From assembly GCF_050920415.1 (NCBI RefSeq), contig NZ_CP169309.1: a stretch of 64,000 bases of DNA; one strand, given 5' to 3'. Below the pieces are notes generated by a model. It was not told the origin of the DNA. It did not search any database and was given only the letters and a program-made list of their open reading frames with translations. Positions 2,028 to 30,469 of the stretch are shown here, one piece after another. The translations under genes and the position numbers were made by a program. Each line of letters begins with the position of its first letter. Position 1 is the stretch's first letter. The stretch is from Escherichia coli (GTDB lineage: Bacteria; Pseudomonadota; Gammaproteobacteria; Enterobacterales; Enterobacteriaceae).

Positions 2028-3116
2028 ATGCGTAAGCAGTGGCTCGGGATCTGCATCGCGGCAGGAATGCTCGCGGCATGTACAAGCGATGATGGTCAGC
2101 AACAGACGGTAAGTGTACCGCAGCCTGCGGTATGTAACGGCCCCATAGTTGAAATTAGCGGGGCGGACCCGCGTTTCGAACCACTGAACGCGACGGCAAA
2201 TCAGGATTACCAGCGCGATGGTAAAAGCTACAAAATCGTGCAGGATCCGTCTCGATTTAGCCAGGCGGGACTGGCGGCAATCTATGATGCCGAACCAGGC
2301 AGTAACCTGACGGCCTCTGGCGAAGCTTTCGATCCGACACAGCTGACGGCGGCCCATCCAACGCTTCCGATCCCCAGCTACGCCAGAATCACTAACCTGG
2401 CTAACGGGCGAATGATCGTGGTGCGCATTAATGATCGCGGTCCTTATGGCAACGACCGCGTTATTTCGCTTTCTCGCGCAGCAGCTGACCGTCTTAACAC
2501 GTCAAACAACACCAAAGTTCGTATCGATCCGATTATTGTCGCCCAGGATGGTTCGCTTTCTGGTCCTGGTATGGCTTGTACCACAGTCGCCAAACAGACT
2601 TACGCCCTGCCTGCACCTCCCGATTTAAGCGGCGGCGCAGGAACAAGTTCAGTGTCTGGCCCGCAGGGTGACATTCTTCCGGTCAGTAATTCGACGCTAA
2701 AAAGCGAAGATCCGACTGGCGCGCCGGTAACCAGCAGCGGTTTCCTCGGCGCACCAACGACCTTAGCGCCTGGTGTTCTGGAAGGCAGCGAACCAACGCC
2801 TGCACCACAGCCCGTTGTTACAGCTCCCTCGACAACGCCTGCAACCTCGCCTGCAATGGTGACACCGCAAGCCGCCTCGCAAAGCGCTAGCGGCAACTTT
2901 ATGGTGCAAGTTGGGGCAGTAAGCGATCAGGCGCGTGCGCAACAGTACCAACAGCAACTGGGACAGAAGTTCGGCGTCCCCGGTCGCGTAACTCAAAATG
3001 GCGCGGTCTGGCGGATCCAGCTTGGCCCATTCGCCAGCAAAGCCGAAGCCAGTACCTTGCAGCAACGTTTGCAAACCGAAGCCCAATTGCAGTCATTTAT
3101 TACCACCGCGCAGTAG
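2028..3116 (+). CDS. rlpA: Rare lipoprotein A (lytic transglycosylase, C-terminal SPOR domain)
   Basis: 362-aa ORF with lipoprotein signal (..LAACTSD), Pro/Thr/Ala-rich linker and SPOR-like C-terminus; synteny. Confidence 0.93.
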   Translation: MRKQWLGICIAAGMLAACTSDDGQQQTVSVPQPAVCNGPIVEISGADPRFEPLNATANQDYQRDGKSYKIVQDPSRFSQAGLAAIYDAEPGSNLTASGEAFDPTQLTAAHPTLPIPSYARITNLANGRMIVVRINDRGPYGNDRVISLSRAAADRLNTSNNTKVRIDPIIVAQDGSLSGPGMACTTVAKQTYALPAPPDLSGGAGTSSVSGPQGDILPVSNSTLKSEDPTGAPVTSSGFLGAPTTLAPGVLEGSEPTPAPQPVVTAPSTTPATSPAMVTPQAASQSASGNFMVQVGAVSDQARAQQYQQQLGQKFGVPGRVTQNGAVWRIQLGPFASKAEASTLQQRLQTEAQLQSFITTAQ

Positions 3117-3255
3117 CGTAAAGCAGGCATCTGATGTGTCAATTTCTGTAAATGACGTTAACAAAGTCACGCGGAAAGTCAGATGCCTGCCGGTAGTGCA
3201 TTTGCTATAGTAGGGCACTTTTTTTAATTCCATCACGGATGTCGTAGTTCAGACC

Positions 3256-4467
3256 ATGAATACCATTTTTTCCGCTCGTATCATGAAGCGCCTGGCGCTC
3301 ACCACGGCTCTTTGCACAGCCTTTATCTCTGCTGCACATGCCGATGACCTGAATATCAAAACTATGATCCCGGGTGTACCGCAGATCGATGCGGAGTCCT
3401 ACATCCTGATTGACTATAACTCGGGCAAAGTGCTCGCCGAACAGAACGCAGATGTCCGCCGCGATCCTGCCAGTCTGACCAAAATGATGACCAGTTACGT
3501 TATCGGCCAGGCAATGAAAGCCGGTAAATTTAAAGAAACTGATTTAGTCACCATCGGCAACGACGCATGGGCCACCGGTAACCCGGTATTTAAAGGTTCT
3601 TCGCTGATGTTCCTCAAACCGGGCATGCAGGTTCCGGTTTCTCAGCTGATCCGCGGTATTAACCTGCAATCGGGTAACGATGCTTGCGTCGCCATGGCCG
3701 ATTTTGCCGCTGGTAGCCAGGACGCTTTTGTTGGCTTGATGAACAGCTACGTTAACGCACTGGGCCTGAAAAACACTCACTTCCAGACCGTGCACGGTCT
3801 CGACGCTGACGGTCAGTACAGCTCCGCGCGAGATATGGCGCTGATCGGCCAGGCGTTGATCCGTGACGTACCGAATGAATACTCGATCTATAAAGAAAAA
3901 GAATTTACGTTTAACGGTATTCGCCAGCTGAACCGTAACGGCCTGTTATGGGATAACAGCCTGAATGTCGACGGCATCAAAACCGGACACACTGACAAAG
4001 CAGGTTACAACCTTGTTGCTTCTGCGACTGAAGGCCAGATGCGCTTGATCTCTGCGGTGATGGGCGGACGTACTTTTAAAGGCCGTGAAGCCGAAAGTAA
4101 AAAACTGCTAACCTGGGGCTTCCGTTTCTTCGAAACCGTTAACCCACTGAAAGTAGGTAAAGAGTTCGCCTCTGAACCGGTTTGGTTTGGTGATTCTGAT
4201 CGCGCTTCGTTAGGTGTTGATAAAGACGTGTACCTGACCATTCCGCGTGGCCGCATGAAAGATCTGAAAGCCAGCTATGTGCTGAACAGCAGTGAATTGC
4301 ATGCGCCGCTGCAAAAGAATCAGGTCGTCGGTACTATCAACTTCCAGCTTGATGGCAAAACGATCGAACAACGCCCGCTGGTTGTGCTGCAAGAAATCCC
4401 GGAAGGCAACTTCTTCGGCAAAATCATTGATTACATTAAGTTAATGTTCCATCACTGGTTTGGTTAA
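3256..4467 (+). CDS. dacA: D-alanyl-D-alanine carboxypeptidase DacA (PBP5)
   Basis: 403-aa ORF with signal peptide and SxxK active-site motif (ASLTK); synteny. Confidence 0.95.
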
Positions 4468-4940: not shown

Positions 4941-5582
4941 TTGTATCAGGATAAAATTCTTGTCCGCCAGCTCGGTCTTCAGCCTTACGAGCCAATCTCC
5001 CAGGCTATGCATGAATTCACCGATACCCGCGATGAAAGTACCCTTGATGAAATCTGGCTGGTCGAGCACTATCCGGTATTCACCCAAGGGCAGGCAGGAA
5101 AAGCGGAGCACATTTTAATGCCGGGCGATATTCCGGTGATCCAAAGCGATCGCGGTGGGCAGGTGACTTATCACGGGCCGGGGCAACAGGTGATGTATGT
5201 GTTGCTTAACCTGAAACGCCGTAAACTCGGTGTGCGTGAACTGGTGACCTTGCTCGAGCAAACAGTGGTGAATACCCTGGCTGAACTGGGTATAGAAGCA
5301 CATCCTCGGGCTGACGCGCCTGGTGTCTATGTCGGGGAAAAGAAAATTTGCTCACTGGGTTTACGTATTCGACGCGGTTGTTCATTCCACGGTCTGGCAT
5401 TAAACGTCAATATGGATCTTTCACCATTTTTACGTATTAATCCTTGTGGGTATGCCGGAATGGAAATGGCTAAAATATCACAATGGAGACCCGAAGCGAC
5501 GACTAATAATATTGCACCACGTTTACTGGAAAATATTTTAGCGCTACTAAACAATCCTGACTTCGAATATATTACCGCTTAA
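4941..5582 (+). CDS. lipB: Octanoyltransferase LipB (TTG start)
   Basis: 213-aa ORF starting at TTG 4941; sequence and synteny match LipB. Confidence 0.92.
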
Positions 5583-5841
5583 TTGCATACATCAATGGCC
5601 CAATTTACACTGGGTCATTACTCATAATACCTGCTAATGCTTTACATCTCCTTCGCGTTTGTATATTTTCTTTATCACTTGCAGAAATGCGATGCTACGC
5701 CTTGCTCCGTAACTCACCCCATTGATTAACTTATTGAAATAGTTGATTATGGTGAGCAAAAGCGTTCCGTTCCAATTAGACATAAGATTATTGTAATTTT
5801 TTTAAATATTATTTTTCCATGAATAAAATTGGAGTAAGTGC

Positions 5842-6795
5842 GTGGATAGTAATAATCAAATTGAAACCTGTTTAAGCAGAAAGTCGTCAGAAGGTAAACC
5901 ACAAATATTTACAACCTTACGAAATATTGATCTTAACCTTCTGACTATTTTTGAAGCTGTGTATGTGCATAAAGGGATCGTTAATGCAGCGAAAGTGCTT
6001 AATCTGACACCCTCAGCAATCAGTCAGTCTATTCAGAAACTGCGCGTTATATTCCCTGACCCATTGTTTATTCGCAAAGGCCAGGGCGTCACTCCTACTG
6101 CATTTGCAATGCATTTGCATGAGTATATCAGTCAGGGCCTTGAATCCATTCTCGGCGCGCTGGATATCGAAGGAACCTATGATAAGCAACGAACGATAAC
6201 TATCGCGACCACCCCCTCGGTCGGAGCCCTGGTCCTTCCAGTCATCTATCGGGCGATTAAAACTCATTATCCGCAGCTTTTACTGCGCAACCCCCCTATC
6301 AGCGACGCGGAAAGCCAACTCAGTCAGTTTCAAACCGATCTCATCATTGATAACATGTTCTGCACCAATCGTACGGTACAACATCATGTTCTGTTCACCG
6401 ACAATATGGTGTTAATTTGCCGCGAGGGAAATTCGCTACTCTCCTTAGAAGATGACAGAGAGACTATCGAAAACGCTGCACATGTACTCCTGTTACCGGA
6501 AGGGCAAAATTTCAGCGGTTTGCGGCAGAGAGTTCAAGAGATGTTTCCGGACCGACAAATCAGTTTTACCAGCTACAACATTCTCACAATCGCTGCACTG
6601 GTTGCCAACAGTGACATGTTAGCGATTATTCCCAGCCGTTTTTATAATCTGTTTAGCCGTTGCTGGCCGCTGGAAAAGCTGCCTTTTCCGTCCTTAAATG
6701 AGGAGCAAATTGATTTCTCTATCCACTACAACAAATTCAGCCTGCGCGATCCTATCCTGCATGGGGTTATAGATGTTATCCGTAATGCATTTTGA
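5842..6795 (+). CDS. ybeF: LysR-family transcriptional regulator YbeF
   Basis: 317-aa ORF (GTG start) with N-terminal LysR-type HTH; AT-rich coding sequence; synteny between lipB and lipA. Confidence 0.9.
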   Translation: MDSNNQIETCLSRKSSEGKPQIFTTLRNIDLNLLTIFEAVYVHKGIVNAAKVLNLTPSAISQSIQKLRVIFPDPLFIRKGQGVTPTAFAMHLHEYISQGLESILGALDIEGTYDKQRTITIATTPSVGALVLPVIYRAIKTHYPQLLLRNPPISDAESQLSQFQTDLIIDNMFCTNRTVQHHVLFTDNMVLICREGNSLLSLEDDRETIENAAHVLLLPEGQNFSGLRQRVQEMFPDRQISFTSYNILTIAALVANSDMLAIIPSRFYNLFSRCWPLEKLPFPSLNEEQIDFSIHYNKFSLRDPILHGVIDVIRNAF

Positions 6796-8401: not shown

Positions 8402-9196
8402 TCATAATAATTGTGGCGGCGCAAAACGACGGTTGTTTAATACTGGAAGTTGCGCGCGCACCTGACGCACTCGTTCAGGCGTCACTTCCGCCATAATAAG
8501 GGCAGGCATTTCTGCCGCCGCCGCAATGGTGACACCAAAGGGATCTATAATCCGACTTTGCCCGATATTTTTGTTCCCGCACTCCCCCGCCGCCACCATA
8601 TAACTGGTAGTATCCAGCGCACGAGCGGCAAGCAACGTTGACCAGTGATGCTCTTTGAGCGGTCCGCGAACCCAGGCCGCGGGAAGTACCAGGATTTCAG
8701 CTCCCTGTAATGCCTGTGCCAGCGCCAGCTCTGGAAAGCGTAAGTCATAACAGGTCATCAGACCAACCTTCATCCCTTCGACCTCCAGTAACGAAGCGAT
8801 TTCGTTACCTGCATCAACATGGCGTGACTCCTGAATGGCAAATGCATCATAGAGATGCAGTTTGGCATAACGGGCGACAATGTTTCCCGCTTGTATGGCC
8901 ACCAGCATATTCCATGCGCGCCCCGGCGTTGAAGGAACATGAATCGTCAGTATTGTCGTCATCATGTTACGTTTACTTTCTCGCCGTAAACGTCCGAGGA
9001 ATTCGCCTTCCAGCAGCTGTGCTGATTTAACCGATAGATCTGCATCATGATCATCACGCGCCAACAATGCTTCCGGCAGGACAAACAGCGAAACGTCGTT
9101 TTCCGCCGCCTGCGCCATCAACGAGGCACAAATCTCAGCGTTCTTTTCCCACACAGATGTAACAGCAAACTGTCCTGCGGCAACCAGCATTGCCAC
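8402..9196 (-). CDS. ybeM: Nitrilase-superfamily C-N hydrolase YbeM, intact reading frame
   Basis: 264-aa uninterrupted ORF; carbon-nitrogen hydrolase fold recognised by sequence; position between tatE and crcB. Confidence 0.85.
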
Positions 9197-9673: not shown

Positions 9674-9704
9674 CAAAAAAAACCCGCTGATTAAGCGGGT
9701 TTTG
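9674..9704. terminator. Bidirectional rho-independent terminator between convergent crcB and cspE
   Basis: aaaaaaaacccgct-gatt-aagcgggtttt hairpin with flanking A/T runs. Confidence 0.75.
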
Positions 9705-9722
9705 AATTCTTGCTGACGTATC

Positions 9723-9932
9723 TTACAGAGCGATTACGTTTGCAGCAGAAGGGCCTTTGGCACCGTTAGTGATTTCGAACTCTACGCGCTGACCTTCAGC
9801 AAGAGTTTTAAAACCATTAGTCTGGATTGCAGAGAAGTGTACGAACACGTCTTTGCTGCCGTCTTCCGGAGTAATGAAACCGAATCCTTTGGACTCATTA
9901 AACCACTTAACGTTACCTTTAATCTTAGACAT
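9723..9932 (-). CDS. cspE: Cold-shock-like protein CspE
   Basis: 69-aa [25 protein letters not shown]..; ORF-track N-terminal extension trimmed to the cold-shock-domain start. Confidence 0.96.
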
Positions 9933-10106
9933 CAAAATTACCTTTACATGAAAAATAGACACAAATGCTGTGTCGGTTACCAGTACACCAATTGTGGTAC
10001 GCTTTGTCCAGTGCAACTTTACTAAAAAGTGATAAAAGTCGCGTTATTTTTGATGTTAATTATTTTACTCATTGATTTTAAAGAAGTTACTAAAATTTCA
10101 TTTGTC

Positions 10107-10667
10107 TCAAAACTGAAAGCGCATCCAGGCAAAGTACACATTGCCATTGTTATAGGTACCCGGAATGTAGGTCATCTGAAAAGTCACTGGACCATAACCC
10201 ACAGAGGCCAATGGCAGTAGAACCGGGAGAGGGATGTAATTCCAGTTATCGCGTGCCGTTACGCCAGCGGTGAATCCCAGTCCTAAATGAAAATTTTCAT
10301 CCGCCAGCGGTCGCCAGGTACTTTCCCATCCGTATCCGGCAATCGGTTCCCATTTGTTCCACGAGTCCTTAAATGCCATGGCATACAGGCCATGCCAGTT
10401 TCCTTTTTCATCCCAACGCGACTGACCAAAACCGCCACCCCACGGTCGCTCGTTATAGCGATCGGTTTTTTCTTTGTCGTAAGCGAAACGAGCATGCCAG
10501 GTGATGGCAGGAATATATAAATCATAATGTTCAGGCTGTTGCCAGGTTTGTGTAATATTTTCTCCAAACGTTGTCATCCACTCATCTGCGTTAGCTAAAA
10601 CTTTACCAACGCTGATTAACTGAATAAAAACAAAGGAAAATATAGAGACATATTTACTCACGTTCAT
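10107..10667 (-). CDS. pagP: Lipid A palmitoyltransferase PagP (outer-membrane beta-barrel)
   Basis: 186-aa ORF starting MNVSKYV.. with signal peptide; sequence matches PagP. Confidence 0.93.
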
Positions 10668-11255
10668 TTGTGACCATAAAACATTTATCAAAAATCTACT
10701 ATTAGCATAGCAAAACTACAATTAACATAACCTTAATAGACCCAACATGAAGAATAATCTGAATAGCTGTTCTATTTATTTCCGCTTGTTCAAGATAAAT
10801 ATTTCCGCGCATCTATTAAAGATGATGCGTCGTTTTCTGCGATGGGAATAGTCATAAAAGAAAAACCAAGTCTTTTTTGATGACAAAATACAATCAAGAA
10901 AAAATTACTTTATTTTTTAATAAGATACAAAAAACTTCTTAACGAAGAATATATTATATATCGTCAACCTATGCTCATGGTAGATTATTTTTTGAGCGCA
11001 CGCCCGCGGCTAACACCATTGCAATTAACAAATTTGCATCAATCCACCATCAATTTACACACATTATTATGTGATAATTGCCAACCGCTAAATATGCGTT
11101 TTGTTATCTATGTATAAAAACAGCAACTTCAATGTCTTAATGGCAGTTTTTCTTGATTTTAATCAGCATTCACCGCCAATTTATTGGGCATATTTTTTCC
11201 TTAAGTTTTAGGAATTTTTTATTATTTACTTTGGGGCCTGGAGACAGGAAAAATT

Positions 11256-12641
11256 ATGCTGACATTCATTGAACTCCTTATTGGGGTTGTGGTTATTGTG
11301 GGTGTAGCTCGCTACATCATTAAAGGGTATTCCGCCACTGGCGTGTTATTTGTCGGTGGCCTGTTATTGCTGATTATTAGTGCCATTATGGGGCACAAAG
11401 TGTTACCGTCCAGCCAGGCTTCAACAGGCTACAGCGCCACGGATATCGTTGAATACGTTAAAATATTGCTAATGAGCCGCGGCGGCGACCTCGGCATGAT
11501 GATTATGATGCTGTGTGGCTTTGCCGCTTACATGACCCATATCGGCGCGAATGATATGGTGGTCAAGCTGGCGTCAAAACCATTGCAGTATATTAACTCC
11601 CCTTACCTGTTGATGATTGCCGCCTATTTTGTCGCCTGTCTGATGTCTCTGGCCGTCTCTTCCGCAACCGGTCTGGGTGTTTTGCTGATGGCAACCCTGT
11701 TTCCGGTGATGGTGAACGTTGGTATCAGCCGTGGTGCAGCTGCTGCTATTTGTGCCTCCCCGGCGGCGATTATTCTCGCACCGACTTCAGGGGATGTGGT
11801 GCTGGCGGCGCAGGCTTCCGAAATGTCGCTGATTGATTTCGCCTTCAAAACGACGCTGCCTATCTCAATTGCTGCAATTATCGGCATGGCGATCGCCCAC
11901 TTCTTCTGGCAACGTTATCTGGATAAAAAAGAGCACATCTCTCATGAAATGTTAGATGTCAGCGAAATCACCACCACTGCTCCTGCGTTTTATGCCATTT
12001 TGCCGTTCACGCCGATCATCGGAGTGCTGATTTTTGACGGCAAATGGGGGCCGCAATTACACATCATCACTATTCTGGTGATTTGTATGCTGATTGCCTC
12101 CATTCTGGAGTTCATCCGCAGCTTTAATACCCAGAAAGTGTTCTCGGGCCTGGAAGTGGCTTATCGCGGGATGGCAGATGCGTTTGCTAACGTGGTGATG
12201 CTGCTGGTTGCCGCTGGGGTATTCGCTCAGGGGCTTAGCACCATCGGCTTTATTCAAAGTCTGATTTCTATCGCCACTTCGTTTGGTTCGGCGAGTATCA
12301 TCCTGATGCTGGTATTGGTGATCCTGACAATGCTGGCGGCAGTCACGACCGGTTCAGGCAATGCGCCGTTTTATGCGTTTGTTGAGATGATCCCGAAACT
12401 GGCGCACTCTTCCGGCATTAACCCGGCGTATTTGACTATCCCAATGCTGCAGGCGTCAAACCTCGGTCGTACCCTGTCACCCGTTTCTGGCGTAGTCGTT
12501 GCGGTTGCCGGGATGGCGAAAATCTCACCATTTGAAGTCGTAAAACGCACCTCGGTGCCGGTGCTTGTTGGGCTGGTGATTGTTATCGTTGCTACAGAGC
12601 TGATGGTGCCAGGAACGGCAGCCGCGGTCACAGGCAAGTAA
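11256..12641 (+). CDS. dcuC: Anaerobic C4-dicarboxylate transporter DcuC
   Basis: 461-aa polytopic membrane ORF; sequence and synteny next to dpiA. Confidence 0.93.
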   Translation: MLTFIELLIGVVVIVGVARYIIKGYSATGVLFVGGLLLLIISAIMGHKVLPSSQASTGYSATDIVEYVKILLMSRGGDLGMMIMMLCGFAAYMTHIGANDMVVKLASKPLQYINSPYLLMIAAYFVACLMSLAVSSATGLGVLLMATLFPVMVNVGISRGAAAAICASPAAIILAPTSGDVVLAAQASEMSLIDFAFKTTLPISIAAIIGMAIAHFFWQRYLDKKEHISHEMLDVSEITTTAPAFYAILPFTPIIGVLIFDGKWGPQLHIITILVICMLIASILEFIRSFNTQKVFSGLEVAYRGMADAFANVVMLLVAAGVFAQGLSTIGFIQSLISIATSFGSASIILMLVLVILTMLAAVTTGSGNAPFYAFVEMIPKLAHSSGINPAYLTIPMLQASNLGRTLSPVSGVVVAVAGMAKISPFEVVKRTSVPVLVGLVIVIVATELMVPGTAAAVTGK

Positions 12642-13362: not shown

Positions 13363-14989
13363 TAGGTTTCACTTTCGGAATATAGATTGAAAATAAGGTA
13401 CCGCAGGGATCATTATCTTCGAGAGTGATAACACCACCGCAGCGCGTTACGTAGCTGGCAATCAAGTACAACCCAATGCCATGTTCGCCGGGCTCGTCAG
13501 CACGCGTACTGACACCCTGCTCAAATATTTTGTCTCGTAGAGACTCTGGAACGCCGCAGCCCTGATCGGCGACTTCAATCACCACATCATCGCCTTCATC
13601 GCTGAGGAATAATTCAACGATCTTGTTTCCTTCATCGCTACGCAGGCTGGCTTCGAAGGCGTTATCAAGTAAATTGCCAACAATGGCTGCAAACTCGGTG
13701 CTGTCCAGTCCTGGCGGCAGTTGCGAAAGCTGACTTCCGGGGACGATGACCATTTTTAGCCCCAGTTCGCGGGCGCGCTGCACTTTACCAAAAAGCAGCC
13801 CCGCCACCTGGCGATCGGCAAACGCCTCGCGCAGGCTATCAATGAGCTGTTGCTGGGCCTGAGACTCCCCCTGCACCATCGCCAACACGCGATCATACTC
13901 TTTCATCTGCAACAGACCATTGAGCGTCGACATCCAATTGAGATGCTCGTGTCGCAATGTGCGCAGGCTCTCGACGTATTGTTTAATTTGCGTCAGTTGT
14001 GCATTGAGGGTGGATATTTCGTCTTTACTACGAAAGCTGATAATGGCCCCCAGCAAATCATCACCAGAACGAATAGCTTCCCGGTTGGCAATAACGCTCA
14101 GACCGTTAAAGTTCGCCACCACATCCTGACGTTTTTCATCAATCTGTTCGGTAAAGAAATCGGCGGGCCTGACCACTTCAGCAATGGGTTTACCCAACCA
14201 TTGCCGTCCGGGGGAACTCAGCCCCAGCATCTTTCTTGCGTTACGATTGATGGCGGTAATGTAACCGTGCGGATCCACCGCAATCAGCCCTTCATAAACC
14301 GAACTAAACAGCGCCTCTTGCTGACGGACCACGCGTGCGATTTGCTTTGGCTCCATGCCCATCATTTGCCGACGGATATGCGCGGCCAGGAACCACGACA
14401 GCAACATCAGAATCCCTAACAGCACGACAAACACGCCAGCCATCGGTAATAAAAACTCAGCCCGCCAGCTATCGATTTTACTCACCAGGTAGCCAATCGA
14501 CACCACGCCGATGACTTTTCCATCGTCATCAAAGATTGGCGTTTTGGCACGCATCGCCATGCCAATTGACCCTTTCCCGGTGATAAAGTAGCTCTCCCCT
14601 TTCTCCAGCGCGCCCGGTTTGGTGAATTGCATAGGATAACCAATTTTCTCCGGATTAGGATGGTAAAGACGAATCGAGTGCCGGTCACCAATCACGACAT
14701 AATCGAAATCAGTATCTCTTTGTAATTTGTTAGCGATGGTCGCCAGCCTCTTGTAGTCACGCGTTTTCACTGCGCTGATGATACTGTCATTAGAAGCAAT
14801 AATTTTTGCCTGATTCATTGCCATGTCGCGCACATGAAGCGTTAAATAGTCCTCAAAACTGGCCGTAAAATATTGCGCCAGGGCTGCAATGACAAATATT
14901 GAGAACACCAGAATCAGCAAAAAGATACGCAGCGGAAATGCCAGTCTTTGGAAAAATGCAAACTGTTTATTCTCGTTAAGCTGCAACAT
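13331..14989 (-). CDS. dpiB: Sensor histidine kinase DpiB (CitA), citrate sensor
   Basis: 552-aa ORF with two TM segments, periplasmic PAS-like domain and HATPase_c C-terminus; start trimmed to MLQLNENK. Confidence 0.92.
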   Translation of the reverse strand: MLQLNENKQFAFFQRLAFPLRIFLLILVFSIFVIAALAQYFTASFEDYLTLHVRDMAMNQAKIIASNDSIISAVKTRDYKRLATIANKLQRDTDFDYVVIGDRHSIRLYHPNPEKIGYPMQFTKPGALEKGESYFITGKGSIGMAMRAKTPIFDDDGKVIGVVSIGYLVSKIDSWRAEFLLPMAGVFVVLLGILMLLSWFLAAHIRRQMMGMEPKQIARVVRQQEALFSSVYEGLIAVDPHGYITAINRNARKMLGLSSPGRQWLGKPIAEVVRPADFFTEQIDEKRQDVVANFNGLSVIANREAIRSGDDLLGAIISFRSKDEISTLNAQLTQIKQYVESLRTLRHEHLNWMSTLNGLLQMKEYDRVLAMVQGESQAQQQLIDSLREAFADRQVAGLLFGKVQRARELGLKMVIVPGSQLSQLPPGLDSTEFAAIVGNLLDNAFEASLRSDEGNKIVELFLSDEGDDVVIEVADQGCGVPESLRDKIFEQGVSTRADEPGEHGIGLYLIASYVTRCGGVITLEDNDPCGTLFSIYIPKVKPNDSSINPIDR

Positions 14990-15368
14990 TGTTTTCCTTG
15001 CGGGTTGTCCCGAGCCTTTTTGACGGATGTAATTAAAATGTTGAATCAAAATACATAGATATTAAATATAATCGTGGCAAATTTTATTCATTAAATCAAT
15101 TAAATCACTTAAACCTGCGGGTCATTTCGTAATTACATTAATTAAAAAACTTAAAACCATTAAATAAATAAAAAACCACTAACTCTATGTGAAATAAATC
15201 AAAATTTCACGCTGCAATACTCCTTAGGATGTATAGCGAAAGGAGAAAAAGATATACCTCGATCGCCCCCCTTTCTCCCAAGTGAAAATAAAAGGTTATC
15301 AGTTTGCAACATCGAACAACATTCGTTGCAAATCGATAACAACATGCACCTTCAGGATACTATTTATT

Positions 15369-16427
15369 ATGTTCGGCAATGATATTTTCACCCGTGTAAA
15401 ACGTTCAGAAAATAAAAAAATGGCGGAAATCGTCCAATTCCTGCATGAAAATGATTTGAGCGTTGACACCACAGTCGAAGTATTTATTACCGTAACCCGC
15501 GATGAAAAGCTTATCGCGTGCGGTGGAATTGCCGGAAATATTATTAAATGCGTTGCTATCAGTGAATCCGTTCGCGGTGAAGGACTGGCGCTGACATTAG
15601 CCACTGAATTGATAAACCTCGCCTATGAGCGGCACAGCACGCATCTGTTTATTTATACCAAAACCGAATACGAGGCGCTGTTCCGCCAGTGCGGTTTTTC
15701 CACGCTGACCAGTGTACCCGGCGTGATGGTGCTGATGGAAAACAGCGCCACGCGACTGAAACGCTATGCCGAATCGCTGAAAAAATTTCGTCATCCAGGG
15801 AACAAGATTGGCTGCATTGTGATGAACGCCAATCCCTTTACGAATGGTCACCGTTATCTGATTCAACAGGCTGCAGCACAGTGCGACTGGTTGCATCTGT
15901 TTTTAGTTAAAGAAGATTCTTCACGCTTTCCCTATGAAGACCGGCTGGATCTGGTGTTAAAAGGCACCGCCGATATTCCACGCCTGACTGTGCATCGCGG
16001 CTCCGAATACATCATCTCCCGCGCTACGTTCCCTTGCTACTTCATTAAAGAACAGAGCGTCATTAACCATTGTTACACCGAAATTGATCTGAAGATTTTC
16101 CGTCAGTACCTCGCTCCCGCGCTGGGTGTAACTCACCGCTTTGTCGGTACTGAACCCTTTTGTCGCGTTACCGCCCAGTACAACCAGGATATGCGCTACT
16201 GGCTGGAAACGCCGACTATCTCCGCACCGCCCATCGAACTGGTTGAAATTGAGCGGCTGCGTTACCAGGAGATGCCGATATCCGCTTCCCGGGTACGTCA
16301 ACTGCTGGCGAAAAACGATCTCACGGCTATCGCGCCGCTGGTCCCTGCAGTCACGCTGCATTATTTGCAGAACCTGCTTGAGCACTCCCGCCAGGACGCG
16401 GCAGCTCGTCAAAAGACCCCCGCATGA
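15369..16427 (+). CDS. citC: [Citrate (pro-3S)-lyase] ligase CitC
   Basis: 352-aa ORF starting MFGNDIFTRV; first gene of the citCDEFXG operon. Confidence 0.92.
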   Translation: MFGNDIFTRVKRSENKKMAEIVQFLHENDLSVDTTVEVFITVTRDEKLIACGGIAGNIIKCVAISESVRGEGLALTLATELINLAYERHSTHLFIYTKTEYEALFRQCGFSTLTSVPGVMVLMENSATRLKRYAESLKKFRHPGNKIGCIVMNANPFTNGHRYLIQQAAAQCDWLHLFLVKEDSSRFPYEDRLDLVLKGTADIPRLTVHRGSEYIISRATFPCYFIKEQSVINHCYTEIDLKIFRQYLAPALGVTHRFVGTEPFCRVTAQYNQDMRYWLETPTISAPPIELVEIERLRYQEMPISASRVRQLLAKNDLTAIAPLVPAVTLHYLQNLLEHSRQDAAARQKTPA

Positions 16428-27245: not shown

Positions 27246-27992
27246 ATGTTAAAAAAGATACTTTTACTGGCTCTGCTTCCTACAATCGCCTTTGCAGAGG
27301 AACTTCCTGCTCCGGTAAAAGCGATTGAAAAACAGGGCATTAAGATCATCAAAACGTTCGATGCCCCCGGCGGAATGAAAGGTTATCTCGGCAAGTATCA
27401 GGATATGGGCGTCACCATCTACCTGACTCCAGATGGTAAGCACGCTATCTCTGGTTACATGTACAACGAGAAAGGTGAAAACCTGAGTAACATGCTTATC
27501 GAAAAAGAAATTTATGCGCCAGCCGGACGCGAAATGTGGCAACGGATGGAACAATCGCACTGGCTCCTCGACGGTAAAAAAGACGCGCCAGTCATAGTCT
27601 ACGTTTTCGCCGATCCGTTCTGCCCATATTGTAAACAGTTCTGGCAGCAGGCGCGCCCGTGGGTTGATTCTGGCAAAGTACAGTTGAGAACATTGTTGGT
27701 TGGGGTTATCAAACCAGAAAGTCCGGCGACAGCCGCGGCAATTCTGGCCTCTAAAGATCCCGCAAAAACCTGGCAAGAATATGAAGCCTCTGGCGGCAAA
27801 CTTAAGCTAAATGTGCCTACAAACGTAAGTGCAGAGCAAATGAAAGTGTTAAGCGACAACGAGAAACTCATGGACGATCTGGGGGCAAATGTCACACCGG
27901 CTATCTATTACATGAGTAAGGAAAATACGCTGCAACAGGCCGTGGGGTTGCCCGATCAGAAAACGCTTAATATCATCATGAGAAATAAATAG
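27246..27992 (+). CDS. dsbG: Periplasmic thiol:disulfide interchange protein DsbG
   Basis: 248-aa ORF from [12 protein letters not shown] (signal peptide) with CPYC active site; divergent from ahpC. Confidence 0.93.
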
Positions 27993-28199
27993 AAGGTAAT
28001 TCATGGGTGGTTGAAATACATTCTTGCTTTTCAACCATTCTAAAAACGCATGAATTGCTTCTTCCCCTCCTGACAACTGTGTTACTTTAGAAAAACTTAA
28101 TCCAGAGTTAAGTAATAAAACATAACAAATATAAATAAAACAGTAGAATCATTGATTGCAAGAATGATTTATGGAAAAGATAATATAACGGAGTATGTT

Positions 28200-29102
28200 A
28201 TGGCTAATCTTTATGATTTAAAAAAATTCGACCTCAATTTACTGGTCATATTTGAGTGCATTTATCAACACCTCAGCATTAGCAAAGCAGCAGAATCATT
28301 ATATATAACGCCATCTGCCGTTAGTCAGTCGTTACAACGTTTACGCGTGCAATTTAATGACCCGTTATTCATCCGCTCAGGGAAAGGTATCGCGCCGACT
28401 ACAACAGGGTTAAATCTGCATCACCATCTTGAGAAAAATCTCCGAGGCCTTGAACAAACGATCAATATCGTTAATAAGTCTGAGCTGAAGAAAAATTTTA
28501 TTATCTACGGTCCTCAGCTTATTTCTTGTAGTAATAACAACATGCTAATCCGCTGTCTAAGACAAGATACTTCAATCGATATAGAATGCCATGACATACT
28601 GCTTTCAGCTGAAAACGCTGAAGAATTGTTAGTTCAACGCAAAGCTGACCTGGCAATTACACTGCAACCAGTAATTAGCCGCTCTGTCATCTGCATGCCG
28701 GTACATACTATTCGCAATTCTCTTATATGTAGCAACAAACATCCTCGTATTACCGATACCAGTAACTATGAACAAATTATCGCCGAAGAATTCACCTTGT
28801 TGATATCTAAATCAGCAGGGATTGACGAAATTCAAATGGACATAGATGAACGTTTTATGAACCGTAAAGTTTCATTTCGCAGTTCTTCTTTGTTGACGAT
28901 AATTAATAGTATTTCTGTTACTGACTTATTGGGCATTGTGCCCACCGAACTGTACGATTTACATCGTGATTTTTTGAAGTTACAAGAGATAAAACTGGAA
29001 CGACCACTTCCTACGGTTAAACTTTATATTTCCTATAACAAGGCTTCGTTGAACAACCTTGTCTTCTCACGATTCATAGATCGTTTAAATGATAGCTTCT
29101 GA
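28200..29102 (+). CDS. ybdO: LysR-family transcriptional regulator YbdO
   Basis: 300-aa AT-rich ORF starting MANLYDLKKFDLNLLVIFE with LysR HTH. Confidence 0.88.
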   Translation: MANLYDLKKFDLNLLVIFECIYQHLSISKAAESLYITPSAVSQSLQRLRVQFNDPLFIRSGKGIAPTTTGLNLHHHLEKNLRGLEQTINIVNKSELKKNFIIYGPQLISCSNNNMLIRCLRQDTSIDIECHDILLSAENAEELLVQRKADLAITLQPVISRSVICMPVHTIRNSLICSNKHPRITDTSNYEQIIAEEFTLLISKSAGIDEIQMDIDERFMNRKVSFRSSSLLTIINSISVTDLLGIVPTELYDLHRDFLKLQEIKLERPLPTVKLYISYNKASLNNLVFSRFIDRLNDSF

Positions 29103-29248
29103 TTTATTACCACGGATAAATGTTATATTACGCATCAATTGATTCATTGTGTGAATATAAAATAATGTGCTCTATCTTGCTTCGTTTACCCTATAATTAG
29201 CGGATTCATCTCACAAGTCACCCAGTAACGTTCAGAGAGCGTTTTCAG

Positions 29249-30469
29249 ATGTCTATTTATAAAATCCCTCTTCCGCTGAATATTTTAGAAGCTGCACAGG
29301 AACGTATTACCTGGACACTTAACACCTTGCCCCGTGTTTGCGTTTCTTTTTCGGGGGGTAAAGATTCCGGATTAATGCTGCATCTTACCGCCGAACTTGC
29401 CAGAAAATTGGGAAAAAAAATCTGCGTTTTGTTTATCGACTGGGAAGCACAGTTCTCTTGTACCATCGACTATGTACAGTCGTTACGCGAGTTGTATACC
29501 GACGTTATTGAAGAGTTTTACTGGGTAGCACTCCCACTCAAGACGCAAAATTCCCTTTCACAATACCAACCAGAATGGCAGTGCTGGGAATCTGATGTCG
29601 AATGGGTGCGTCAGCCCCCGCAAGAAGCGATAACCGATCCTGACTTTTTCTCCTTTTACCAGCCAGGCATGACCTTCGAACAATTTGTACGTGAGTTTGC
29701 CGAATGGTTTTCACAAAAACGTCCGGCGGCGATGATGATCGGCATCCGTGCGGATGAGTCCTACAACCGTTTTGTCGCCATCGCCAGTTTAAATAAACAA
29801 CGTTTTGCCGATGATAAGCCCTGGACCACAGCCGCACCAGGCGGTCACTGCTGGTACATTTACCCCATCTACGACTGGAAAGTAGCTGATATCTGGACCT
29901 GGTATGCTAATCATAAATCCCTATGTAACCCATTGTATAATATCATGTATCAGGCAGGCGTTCCCCTGCGTCATATGCGAATTTGCGAACCTTTTGGCCC
30001 GGAGCAACGGCAAGGATTATGGCTCTATCACGTTATCGAACCGGATCGCTGGGCTGCTATGTGCGCACGAGTTAGCGGGGTAAAAAGTGGCGGCATTTAC
30101 GCCGGACATGACAATCATTTTTATGGTCATCGGAAAATCCTCAAACCAGAGCATTTAGACTGGCAAGAGTATGCATTATTGCTGCTTGATAGCATGCCGG
30201 AGAAAACGGCTGAGCATTACCGCAACAAAATTGCCATTTACTTGCATTGGTATCAGAAAAAAGGTATCGAGGTGCCACAGACCCAGGACGGGGACATTGG
30301 CGCGAAAGATATCCCCTCCTGGCGGCGAATTTGCAAGGTGTTACTGAATAACGATTACTGGTGTCGGGCATTATCATTTAGCCCAACCAAAGCGAAGAAT
30401 TATCAGCGTTATAACGAACGGATAAAAGTAAAACGTCAGGAGTGGGGAATACTATGCAACAACAATTAA
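29249..30469 (+). CDS. ybdN: PAPS-reductase-like (ATP pyrophosphatase fold) protein YbdN, IbrA-like
   Basis: 406-aa ORF with SGGKDS P-loop-like motif near the N-terminus; AT-rich; synteny. Confidence 0.88.
   Translation: MSIYKIPLPLNILEAAQERITWTLNTLPRVCVSFSGGKDSGLMLHLTAELARKLGKKICVLFIDWEAQFSCTIDYVQSLRELYTDVIEEFYWVALPLKTQNSLSQYQPEWQCWESDVEWVRQPPQEAITDPDFFSFYQPGMTFEQFVREFAEWFSQKRPAAMMIGIRADESYNRFVAIASLNKQRFADDKPWTTAAPGGHCWYIYPIYDWKVADIWTWYANHKSLCNPLYNIMYQAGVPLRHMRICEPFGPEQRQGLWLYHVIEPDRWAAMCARVSGVKSGGIYAGHDNHFYGHRKILKPEHLDWQEYALLLLDSMPEKTAEHYRNKIAIYLHWYQKKGIEVPQTQDGDIGAKDIPSWRRICKVLLNNDYWCRALSFSPTKAKNYQRYNERIKVKRQEWGILCNNN

Follow-up and report, generated by a model that had tools for sequence, protein, structure and literature searches.

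The DNA analysed here is a 64,000-nucleotide stretch of an Escherichia coli genome (contig NZ_CP169309.1; hereafter the window), in which crcB, cspE (−), pagP (−), dcuC (+), dpiA (−) and dpiB (−) follow each other in this order. The window was 100% identical to strain MFDS1022581 over 721 bp, and its orientation is inverted relative to K-12. In the RefSeq annotation of the 100%-identical genome, as well as in that of K-12, the start codon of pagP (561 nt, 186 aa) is the ATG at position 10667, and the intergenic region between the divergently oriented pagP and dcuC genes (hereafter the gap) therefore comprises positions 10668-11255 (588 bp, 30.8% GC). These bounds, set by the RefSeq gene limits and by colinearity with K-12, replace those of the original prediction (10692-11255, 564 bp), whose left edge had been placed one base past the in-frame upstream TTG of a mechanically called ORF (10107..10691). 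The gap is colinear with K-12 positions 655,969-656,556, from which it differs by 25 substitutions in the same 588 bp, nearly all in the spacer, and by no indels. It is a single-copy region in E. coli genomes, and no PGAP feature was present between pagP and dcuC in any annotated genome that was examined, K-12 included.

With the left edge corrected, the description of the interval as AT-rich and poor in ORFs proved to be right. The GC content of the gap (30.8%; 31.0% for the interval as first delimited) compares with 51.2% for the whole window, in which just 0.14% of the 588-bp segments of a sliding scan are equally AT-rich. The several A/T tracts that had been noticed amount to 20 tracts of at least 4 bases, about twice the expectation from composition (10.9 ± 2.9 in composition-matched shuffles, P = 0.002), so that the gap has an H-NS-type composition, that is, AT-rich, A-tract-rich and far below the GC content of the genome. 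As also stated before, no ORF of 60 codons or more is found within it, the longest one encoding 48 aa. Elsewhere in the window, 588-bp stretches with a GC content of 36% or less occurred only at 5338-6081, 14749-15629 and 27915-29328. Two neighbouring features lie outside the gap. The leader and coding region of cspE (9675-10088, −) matched the Rfam cspA thermoregulator with 123.8 bits (gathering threshold of 78), and this was the only strong Rfam match at permissive E-values. A homologue of ybeM, encoding a deaminated glutathione amidase (8402-9196, −), is an intact ORF both in the window and in the RefSeq genome identical to it; K-12 MG1655 has a pseudogene instead, and strain 23AR1101 a frameshifted copy.

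Conservation of the region was analyzed in 80 loci recovered by a PagP-anchored scan from Escherichia, Citrobacter, Salmonella, Enterobacter, Klebsiella, Raoultella and other genera. The divergent dcuC-pagP arrangement is retained in 44 of them. The spacer lengthens from about 285-305 bp (Klebsiella and Raoultella) through 403 bp (Salmonella), about 437 bp (several Enterobacter) and about 460 bp (Citrobacter) to 558-588 bp (Escherichia), and the sequence that fills it is non-homologous. Comparison of about 45 loci and an alignment of 13 sequences showed that conservation across genera is confined to the two ends of the gap. Using blastn, similarity outside Escherichia was detectable only at 11147-11235; against other Escherichia species, 11023-11251 aligned at about 79% and 10672-10782 at 72%, and no alignment was obtained for 10783-11022 except for one 22-bp patch. 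The conservation profile across the Enterobacteriaceae thus consists of one block near pagP (10704-10738, −) and one near dcuC (11153-11255). The outcome named beforehand as refuting the original prediction, conservation of nothing but the two promoters, was nearly obtained; the exception is one additional conserved block (11021-11150), contiguous with the dcuC promoter. In two loci, from Kosakonia oryziphila and Enterobacter cloacae, the spacer is much longer (899-1,024 bp) and contains ORF fragments resembling hydrophobic membrane proteins. The possibility that the E. coli spacer is a gene remnant was considered and rejected, given that the ORF fragments and inserts of the longer Enterobacter and Kosakonia spacers are dissimilar to it.

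The dcuC promoter of E. coli K-12 was reportedly found by Zientz and co-workers, in 1999, to be activated by FNR. At the dcuC end of the gap, a motif scan identified an FNR box, TTGATTTTAATCAG, at 11153-11166 (+), with one mismatch to TTGAT-N4-ATCAA and with no variation in its ten core bases across the 13 aligned sequences. In 41 of 46 spacers, an FNR-like box stands 99-113 bp away from the dcuC ATG, and an insertion has displaced it in one further spacer; a box close to the consensus upstream of the gene is what characterizes the sequence of an FNR promoter. Downstream of the box, the alignment showed a block conserved across genera, TTTATTnGGCAnATT (11181-11194), that contains the predicted −10 hexamer CATATT (11189-11194, +), and then the Shine-Dalgarno region, where AGGA (11246-11249, +) belongs to a conserved ACAGG(A/G) element. 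From the geometry of the FNR box and the −10-like CATATT, we infer that dcuC transcription would start at about 11201, which would place the centre of the box at about −41.5 and give a predicted 5′ UTR of about 55 nt (11201-11255, +).

Published K-12 data agree with these positions. Coordinates of U00096.2 were converted into window positions by subtracting them from 666,447, a relation that takes into account the colinearity with K-12 and a 777-bp offset between two K-12 genome versions. The bound FNR motif CTGATTAAAATCAA reported at 655,281 by Myers et al. (2013; PMC3688515) corresponds exactly to the box at 11153-11166; the same work lists FNR ChIP peaks at 655,298 and 655,340, classifies dcuC as 'Activated', and gives an aerobic/anaerobic ratio of 0.05 for dcuC, i.e., about 20-fold anaerobic induction. 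The sigma-70 peak at 655,235 falls on window position 11212, beside the predicted start. The dataset also carries the remark 'TSS not in peak region' for dcuC, and a catalogued dcuC start site may hence be located elsewhere. The FNR box is identical in K-12 and located at an equal distance from the ATG, and only 2 differences between both strains fall in the 198 bp next to dcuC (11058-11255); unlike the K-12 promoter, the present gap carries the 25 substitutions in 588 bp and its dcuC start is a predicted one. The anaerobic FNR control that had been proposed for dcuC is therefore well founded in a box with a published motif and ChIP peak. A 14-nt inverted repeat, 93% complementary, was also observed between the −10/start region of dcuC (11188-11201) and its Shine-Dalgarno/ATG region (11246-11259), with 13 of 14 positions paired in four Escherichia sequences and 5-9 of 14 in other genera. 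Such a structure would form only in transcripts begun upstream of the FNR-dependent start, and the pairing could block translation of read-through RNA.

At the opposite end, the −10 hexamer of pagP was assigned to TATGCT (10704-10709, −) on the basis of the alignment, of the Salmonella −10 hexamer TATTAT with which it aligns, and of a K-12 sigma-70 peak; its T1, A2 and T6 are invariant among 13 genera/species. That peak, at 655,742 in anaerobic sigma-70 ChIP-seq and 10-fold higher anaerobically (Myers et al., 2013; PMC3688515), converts into window position 10705, on the predicted −10. Twelve nucleotides upstream of the hexamer, a scan for PhoP motifs found the direct repeat TATTAA-GGTTA-TGTTAA (10722-10738, −), with 3 mismatches to the consensus (T/G)GTTTA-N5-(T/G)GTTTA and with the TT.A cores of both halves invariant across genera. 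By motif count alone the repeat is not statistically distinctive. It shows the disposition expected from a PhoP promoter, with a direct repeat at the −35 position or just upstream of it and phased with the −10, and further phased hexamers resembling half-sites are present at 10711-10716 and at about 10742-10749. An imperfect 20-bp duplication around the PhoP half-sites was detected in a repeat search of the gap. The position of the −10 and the alignment with the S1-mapped Salmonella promoter would place the pagP start site at about 10697, with a predicted 5′ UTR of about 30 nt (10668-10697, −).

A PhoP-dependent promoter of E. coli crcA/pagP is attributed to Minagawa (2003) in PMC2908699, and the Salmonella pagP promoter, of architecture IV, has been footprinted and S1-mapped (PMC3335776). 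The −10 of the present promoter lies at the position aligned with those of both, and the half-site T(G/A)TTAAG is common to the pagP promoters of all genera compared. The best pair of PhoP half-sites lies 12 nt from the −10 in E. coli and one helical turn further upstream, at 23 nt, in Salmonella, which agrees with the distances between PhoP site and start site published by Harari et al., of 32 bp in E. coli crcA and 44 bp in Salmonella. The position of the repeat (10722-10738) is compatible with the crcA site described 32 bp from the start, and the suggestion of PhoP control of pagP was borne out. Visually, the PhoP repeat is also reminiscent of an ArcA direct repeat; a prediction by Park et al. 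places an ArcA site of at least 15 bits in the pagP-dcuC gap, where they saw no ChIP binding.

H-NS had been considered as a further regulator, and here the K-12 data are explicit. Two H-NS ChIP-chip regions, 654,590-655,558 and 655,584-656,283 (Myers et al., 2013; PMC3688515), correspond to 10889-11857 and 10164-10863 in the window, and cover the whole gap, nearly all of pagP (to position 10164) and the first 600 bp or so of dcuC. H-NS was also flagged in the pagP-dcuC spacer by gSELEX (Shimada et al.). In addition, Chalabaev et al. found that expression of a pagP-lacZ fusion increased 18-fold in an hns mutant and that SlyA acts as counter-silencer, and Szczesny et al. described RcsB as a further regulator of pagP. 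Occupancy across the gap together with this derepression of pagP substantiates H-NS control. In the gap of the present strain, no match to the SlyA consensus TTAGCAAGCTAA was found with up to 3 mismatches.

The same region is a recurrent target of insertion sequences. In kanamycin-evolved MG1655, IS5 insertions recur at the gap (PMC6307192), and parallel events were observed in natural isolates: an ISKpn26 element, of the IS5 family, replaces the whole gap in one of them (NZ_CM132250.1; locus positions 2874-3854), and an IS1A is inserted at the start of pagP in another (NZ_OZ546963.1; 411-1108). Within the E. coli gap itself, the repeat search revealed no REP, MITE or IS remnant, only short AT-rich inverted repeats and the 20-bp duplication mentioned above. 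Control by sigma-54 from within the gap was also considered and discarded. A gSELEX peak of RpoN/NtrC near the start of pagP is better explained by a ChIP-mapped site inside the gene, and no correctly spaced GG-N10-GC element was seen by eye in the gap. The sigma-54 ChIP-seq site inside K-12 pagP, TTGGTAAAGTTTTTGCT, reads TTGGTAAAGTTTTAGCT here (10593-10609, −), a change that coincides with the F24L difference in PagP. This intragenic site probably accounts for the peak that was reported 'between dcuC and pagP'.

A gap of this size had been regarded as large enough to host an unannotated small RNA. Support for this idea comes from Ssr31, a predicted 295-nt transcript on the pagP strand between pagP and dcuC in Shigella flexneri 2a 301, which was scored 'Yes' by RT-PCR, and from a distal promoter in the pagP direction, TTAAGA-17-TAAAAA, proposed by Shimada et al. 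and located at 10914-10942 in the window. RT-PCR without a northern blot, however, cannot separate a small RNA from read-through or DNA carry-over, and the place where such a gene with its own promoter and terminator would be expected is the least conserved part of the gap, unalignable even between Escherichia species. No intrinsic terminator was found in the gap on either strand (scan of 10500-11400); the two terminator-like matches in that interval are both inside dcuC (11272-11288 and 11334-11360). At E ≤ 10, the sole Rfam match within the gap had 11.6 bits, which is at chance level and in line with the earlier statement that no RNA gene is recognisable, and folding of 100-nt windows on both strands gave a best z-score of −2.3 against shuffled sequences in 38 tests.

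Data from K-12 likewise speak against such a gene. Anaerobic sigma-70 ChIP-seq (Myers et al., 2013) places two peaks in the gap and no more, one at each of the end promoters. When start-site maps were consulted, as proposed with the original prediction, Cappable-seq showed no start site on the pagP strand between 653,077 and 656,393, and the start-site or 3′-end supplements of Kim 2012, Adams 2021 and SMRT-Cappable-seq contained no entries for pagP or dcuC. None of the attributes of a small RNA gene (an own promoter, or a 5′ end in the start-site data for the pagP strand; a defined 3′ end; conservation or membership of a family) was thus found in the gap, and we consider it very improbable that one is encoded there. 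A consensus scan for sigma-70 promoters in 10500-11400 returned zero matches, compared with 4.6 ± 2.2 in dinucleotide shuffles; this lack of matches may reflect depletion of strong consensus promoters in the AT-rich region.

The nine ORFs of 20-48 aa present in the gap were examined for a small protein. The most plausible one, of 48 codons (10971-11117, +), has an uninterrupted frame beginning with ATG or GTG in six of eight E. coli genomes, but O157 has ACG in place of the start codon, SCU-123 carries a frameshift, stops and frameshifts break it in E. whittamii and E1V33, and its substitutions are mostly amino-acid-changing. The other ORFs of at least 20 aa behave alike, each of the nine being interrupted, deprived of its start or mostly amino-acid-changing within E. 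coli or Escherichia, so that none combines an open frame with purifying selection across relatives. No small protein is annotated here in K-12 or in the PGAP genomes either, and we give hardly any credence to this explanation.

Nucleotide diversity was determined in eight E. coli genomes, chosen from different identity bands of the list of matches, with the 4-fold degenerate sites of pagP and dcuC as neutral benchmark. Values increased from 0.015 in the dcuC promoter (11151-11255) through 0.031 in the adjacent block (11021-11150) and 0.037 in the pagP promoter (10668-10750) to 0.064 at the benchmark sites, which was equalled or exceeded in the spacer core (10751-11020; 0.088, about the synonymous-site rate). 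Within the core, diversity was 0.054 at 10751-10879 and 0.125, about twice the 4-fold-site value, at 10880-10999, its most variable part. This AT-rich, fast-evolving core is specific to E. coli: apart from the 22-bp patch, blastn detected no similarity to 10751-11020 outside the species, and column identity to other Escherichia species was 35-60%.

The block at 11021-11150 (+), upstream of the dcuC promoter, is conserved within Escherichia and partly beyond. Its diversity is half the neutral level, it differs from K-12 at 1 position in 130 bp, and its identity to E. whittamii and E1V33 is about 79%. Nearly invariant columns comprise ATTAACA...GCATCAAT (11024-11043), partly retained in Citrobacter and Enterobacter, and an A-tract at 11116-11120. 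The block also shares the 9-mer CAATTAACA, as a direct repeat, with the pagP PhoP half-site. Judged from these sequence comparisons, it is constrained within Escherichia and yet unexplained by the model of two divergent promoters.

The core itself occurs as discrete allele classes. Among 5,381 E. coli genomes, the 270-bp allele of O157 was present at 99% identity or more in 310 and at 80-90% in 4,863, and that of K-12 at 99% or more in 2,150 and at 80-90% in 1,525. K-12 and O157:H7 differ at 37 positions in 10737-11003 (about 14%) compared with 6 of 1,947 (0.3%) in the flanking coding regions of pagP and dcuC; a core much more divergent than its flanking genes in some strains is the mark of a mosaic intergenic region. 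These observations could point to an actively selected, exchangeable cis-regulatory cassette, whose alleles would set lineage-specific levels of H-NS/SlyA-dependent expression of pagP (or dcuC), which would amount to horizontal regulatory switching. The allele classes, the K-12/O157 discordance and the excess diversity at 10880-10999 are in favour of it, as is the precedent of switched intergenic regions, a phenomenon described in the Piggy paper (PMC5890482). Simple local hypermutation is an unlikely source of the divergence, because the close relatives K-12, BL21 and ECO8855 show less divergence in the core than at their synonymous sites. For most strain pairs, however, core divergence is about equal to synonymous divergence, as expected for unconstrained DNA, and one short recombination tract is enough to explain the O157 discordance without selection. 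We therefore regard a selected cassette as unlikely. Quite doubtful, too, is the more specific proposal that the roughly 270-bp core alleles (K-12, O157 and B2 type) tune silencing of pagP by H-NS/SlyA, perhaps through a distal, Ssr31-like transcript in the pagP sense. If it were true, the alleles would tune lipid A palmitoylation lineage by lineage. Short-tract recombination of old alleles appears to be the simplest account of the discordance between K-12 and O157.

Comparison with the Piggy-type regions (PMC5890482) shows a resemblance in the near-identical flanking genes around a core with about 14% divergence between K-12 and O157. Unlike in Piggy-type switching, the alleles of the gap can be aligned and are homologous over their full length, a pattern of divergence plus recombination and not of replacement by unrelated sequence.

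Bgl, flhDC and similar loci are AT-rich E. coli promoter regions that are silenced by H-NS and can be activated by IS elements. The gap resembles them in being AT- and A-tract-rich, in its H-NS occupancy in K-12, in the derepression in hns mutants, in counter-silencing by SlyA/RcsB, and in the recurrence under selection of IS5 insertions, which may here relieve the silencing by H-NS. It differs from them in that the silenced gene, pagP, is an ancestral core gene and not a horizontally acquired one.

Taken with a probability of about 0.85, our reading is that the divergent genes pagP and dcuC share the gap as a control region, with an H-NS-bound, fast-evolving spacer between their promoters. 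The conservation, motif positions, composition and diversity behind it were computed here; the occupancy by FNR, sigma-70 and H-NS and the effects of hns, slyA and phoP are published K-12 data, and the 25 of 588 positions that differ between K-12 and the present strain spare the FNR box, both −10 hexamers and the PhoP repeat. About 70 bp at the pagP end would act as a sigma-70 promoter in which the PhoP direct repeat takes the place of a −35 element, an arrangement that would lead to activation by PhoP at low magnesium. About 105 bp at the dcuC end would form a class II-type FNR-dependent promoter that fires anaerobically, the centre of the box lying some 41 bp upstream of the presumed dcuC start, and a further 130 bp or so upstream of the box are constrained within Escherichia. 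The middle part of about 270 bp seems to carry no sequence-specific information; it belongs to an H-NS-bound stretch that runs without interruption across the gap and the starts of both genes. H-NS would keep pagP silent until SlyA, RcsB, PhoP or an IS insertion counteracts it. The unconstrained spacer would change by approximately neutral drift overall and by exchange through recombination, and we infer a passive role for it.

The regulators that act on the gap (FNR, PhoP, H-NS/SlyA and RcsB) have already been published for K-12, and the region is in this respect an ordinary, already known one. The main use of the analysis lies in correct annotation. Conservation across genera is limited to about 70 bp next to pagP and about 105-235 bp next to dcuC, and the remainder of the gap can be handled as an H-NS-bound spacer. 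Being at the same time a mosaic core and a recurrent IS target next to a host-interaction gene, the locus could be a handy one for testing whether the exchange of intergenic alleles alters expression of that gene.
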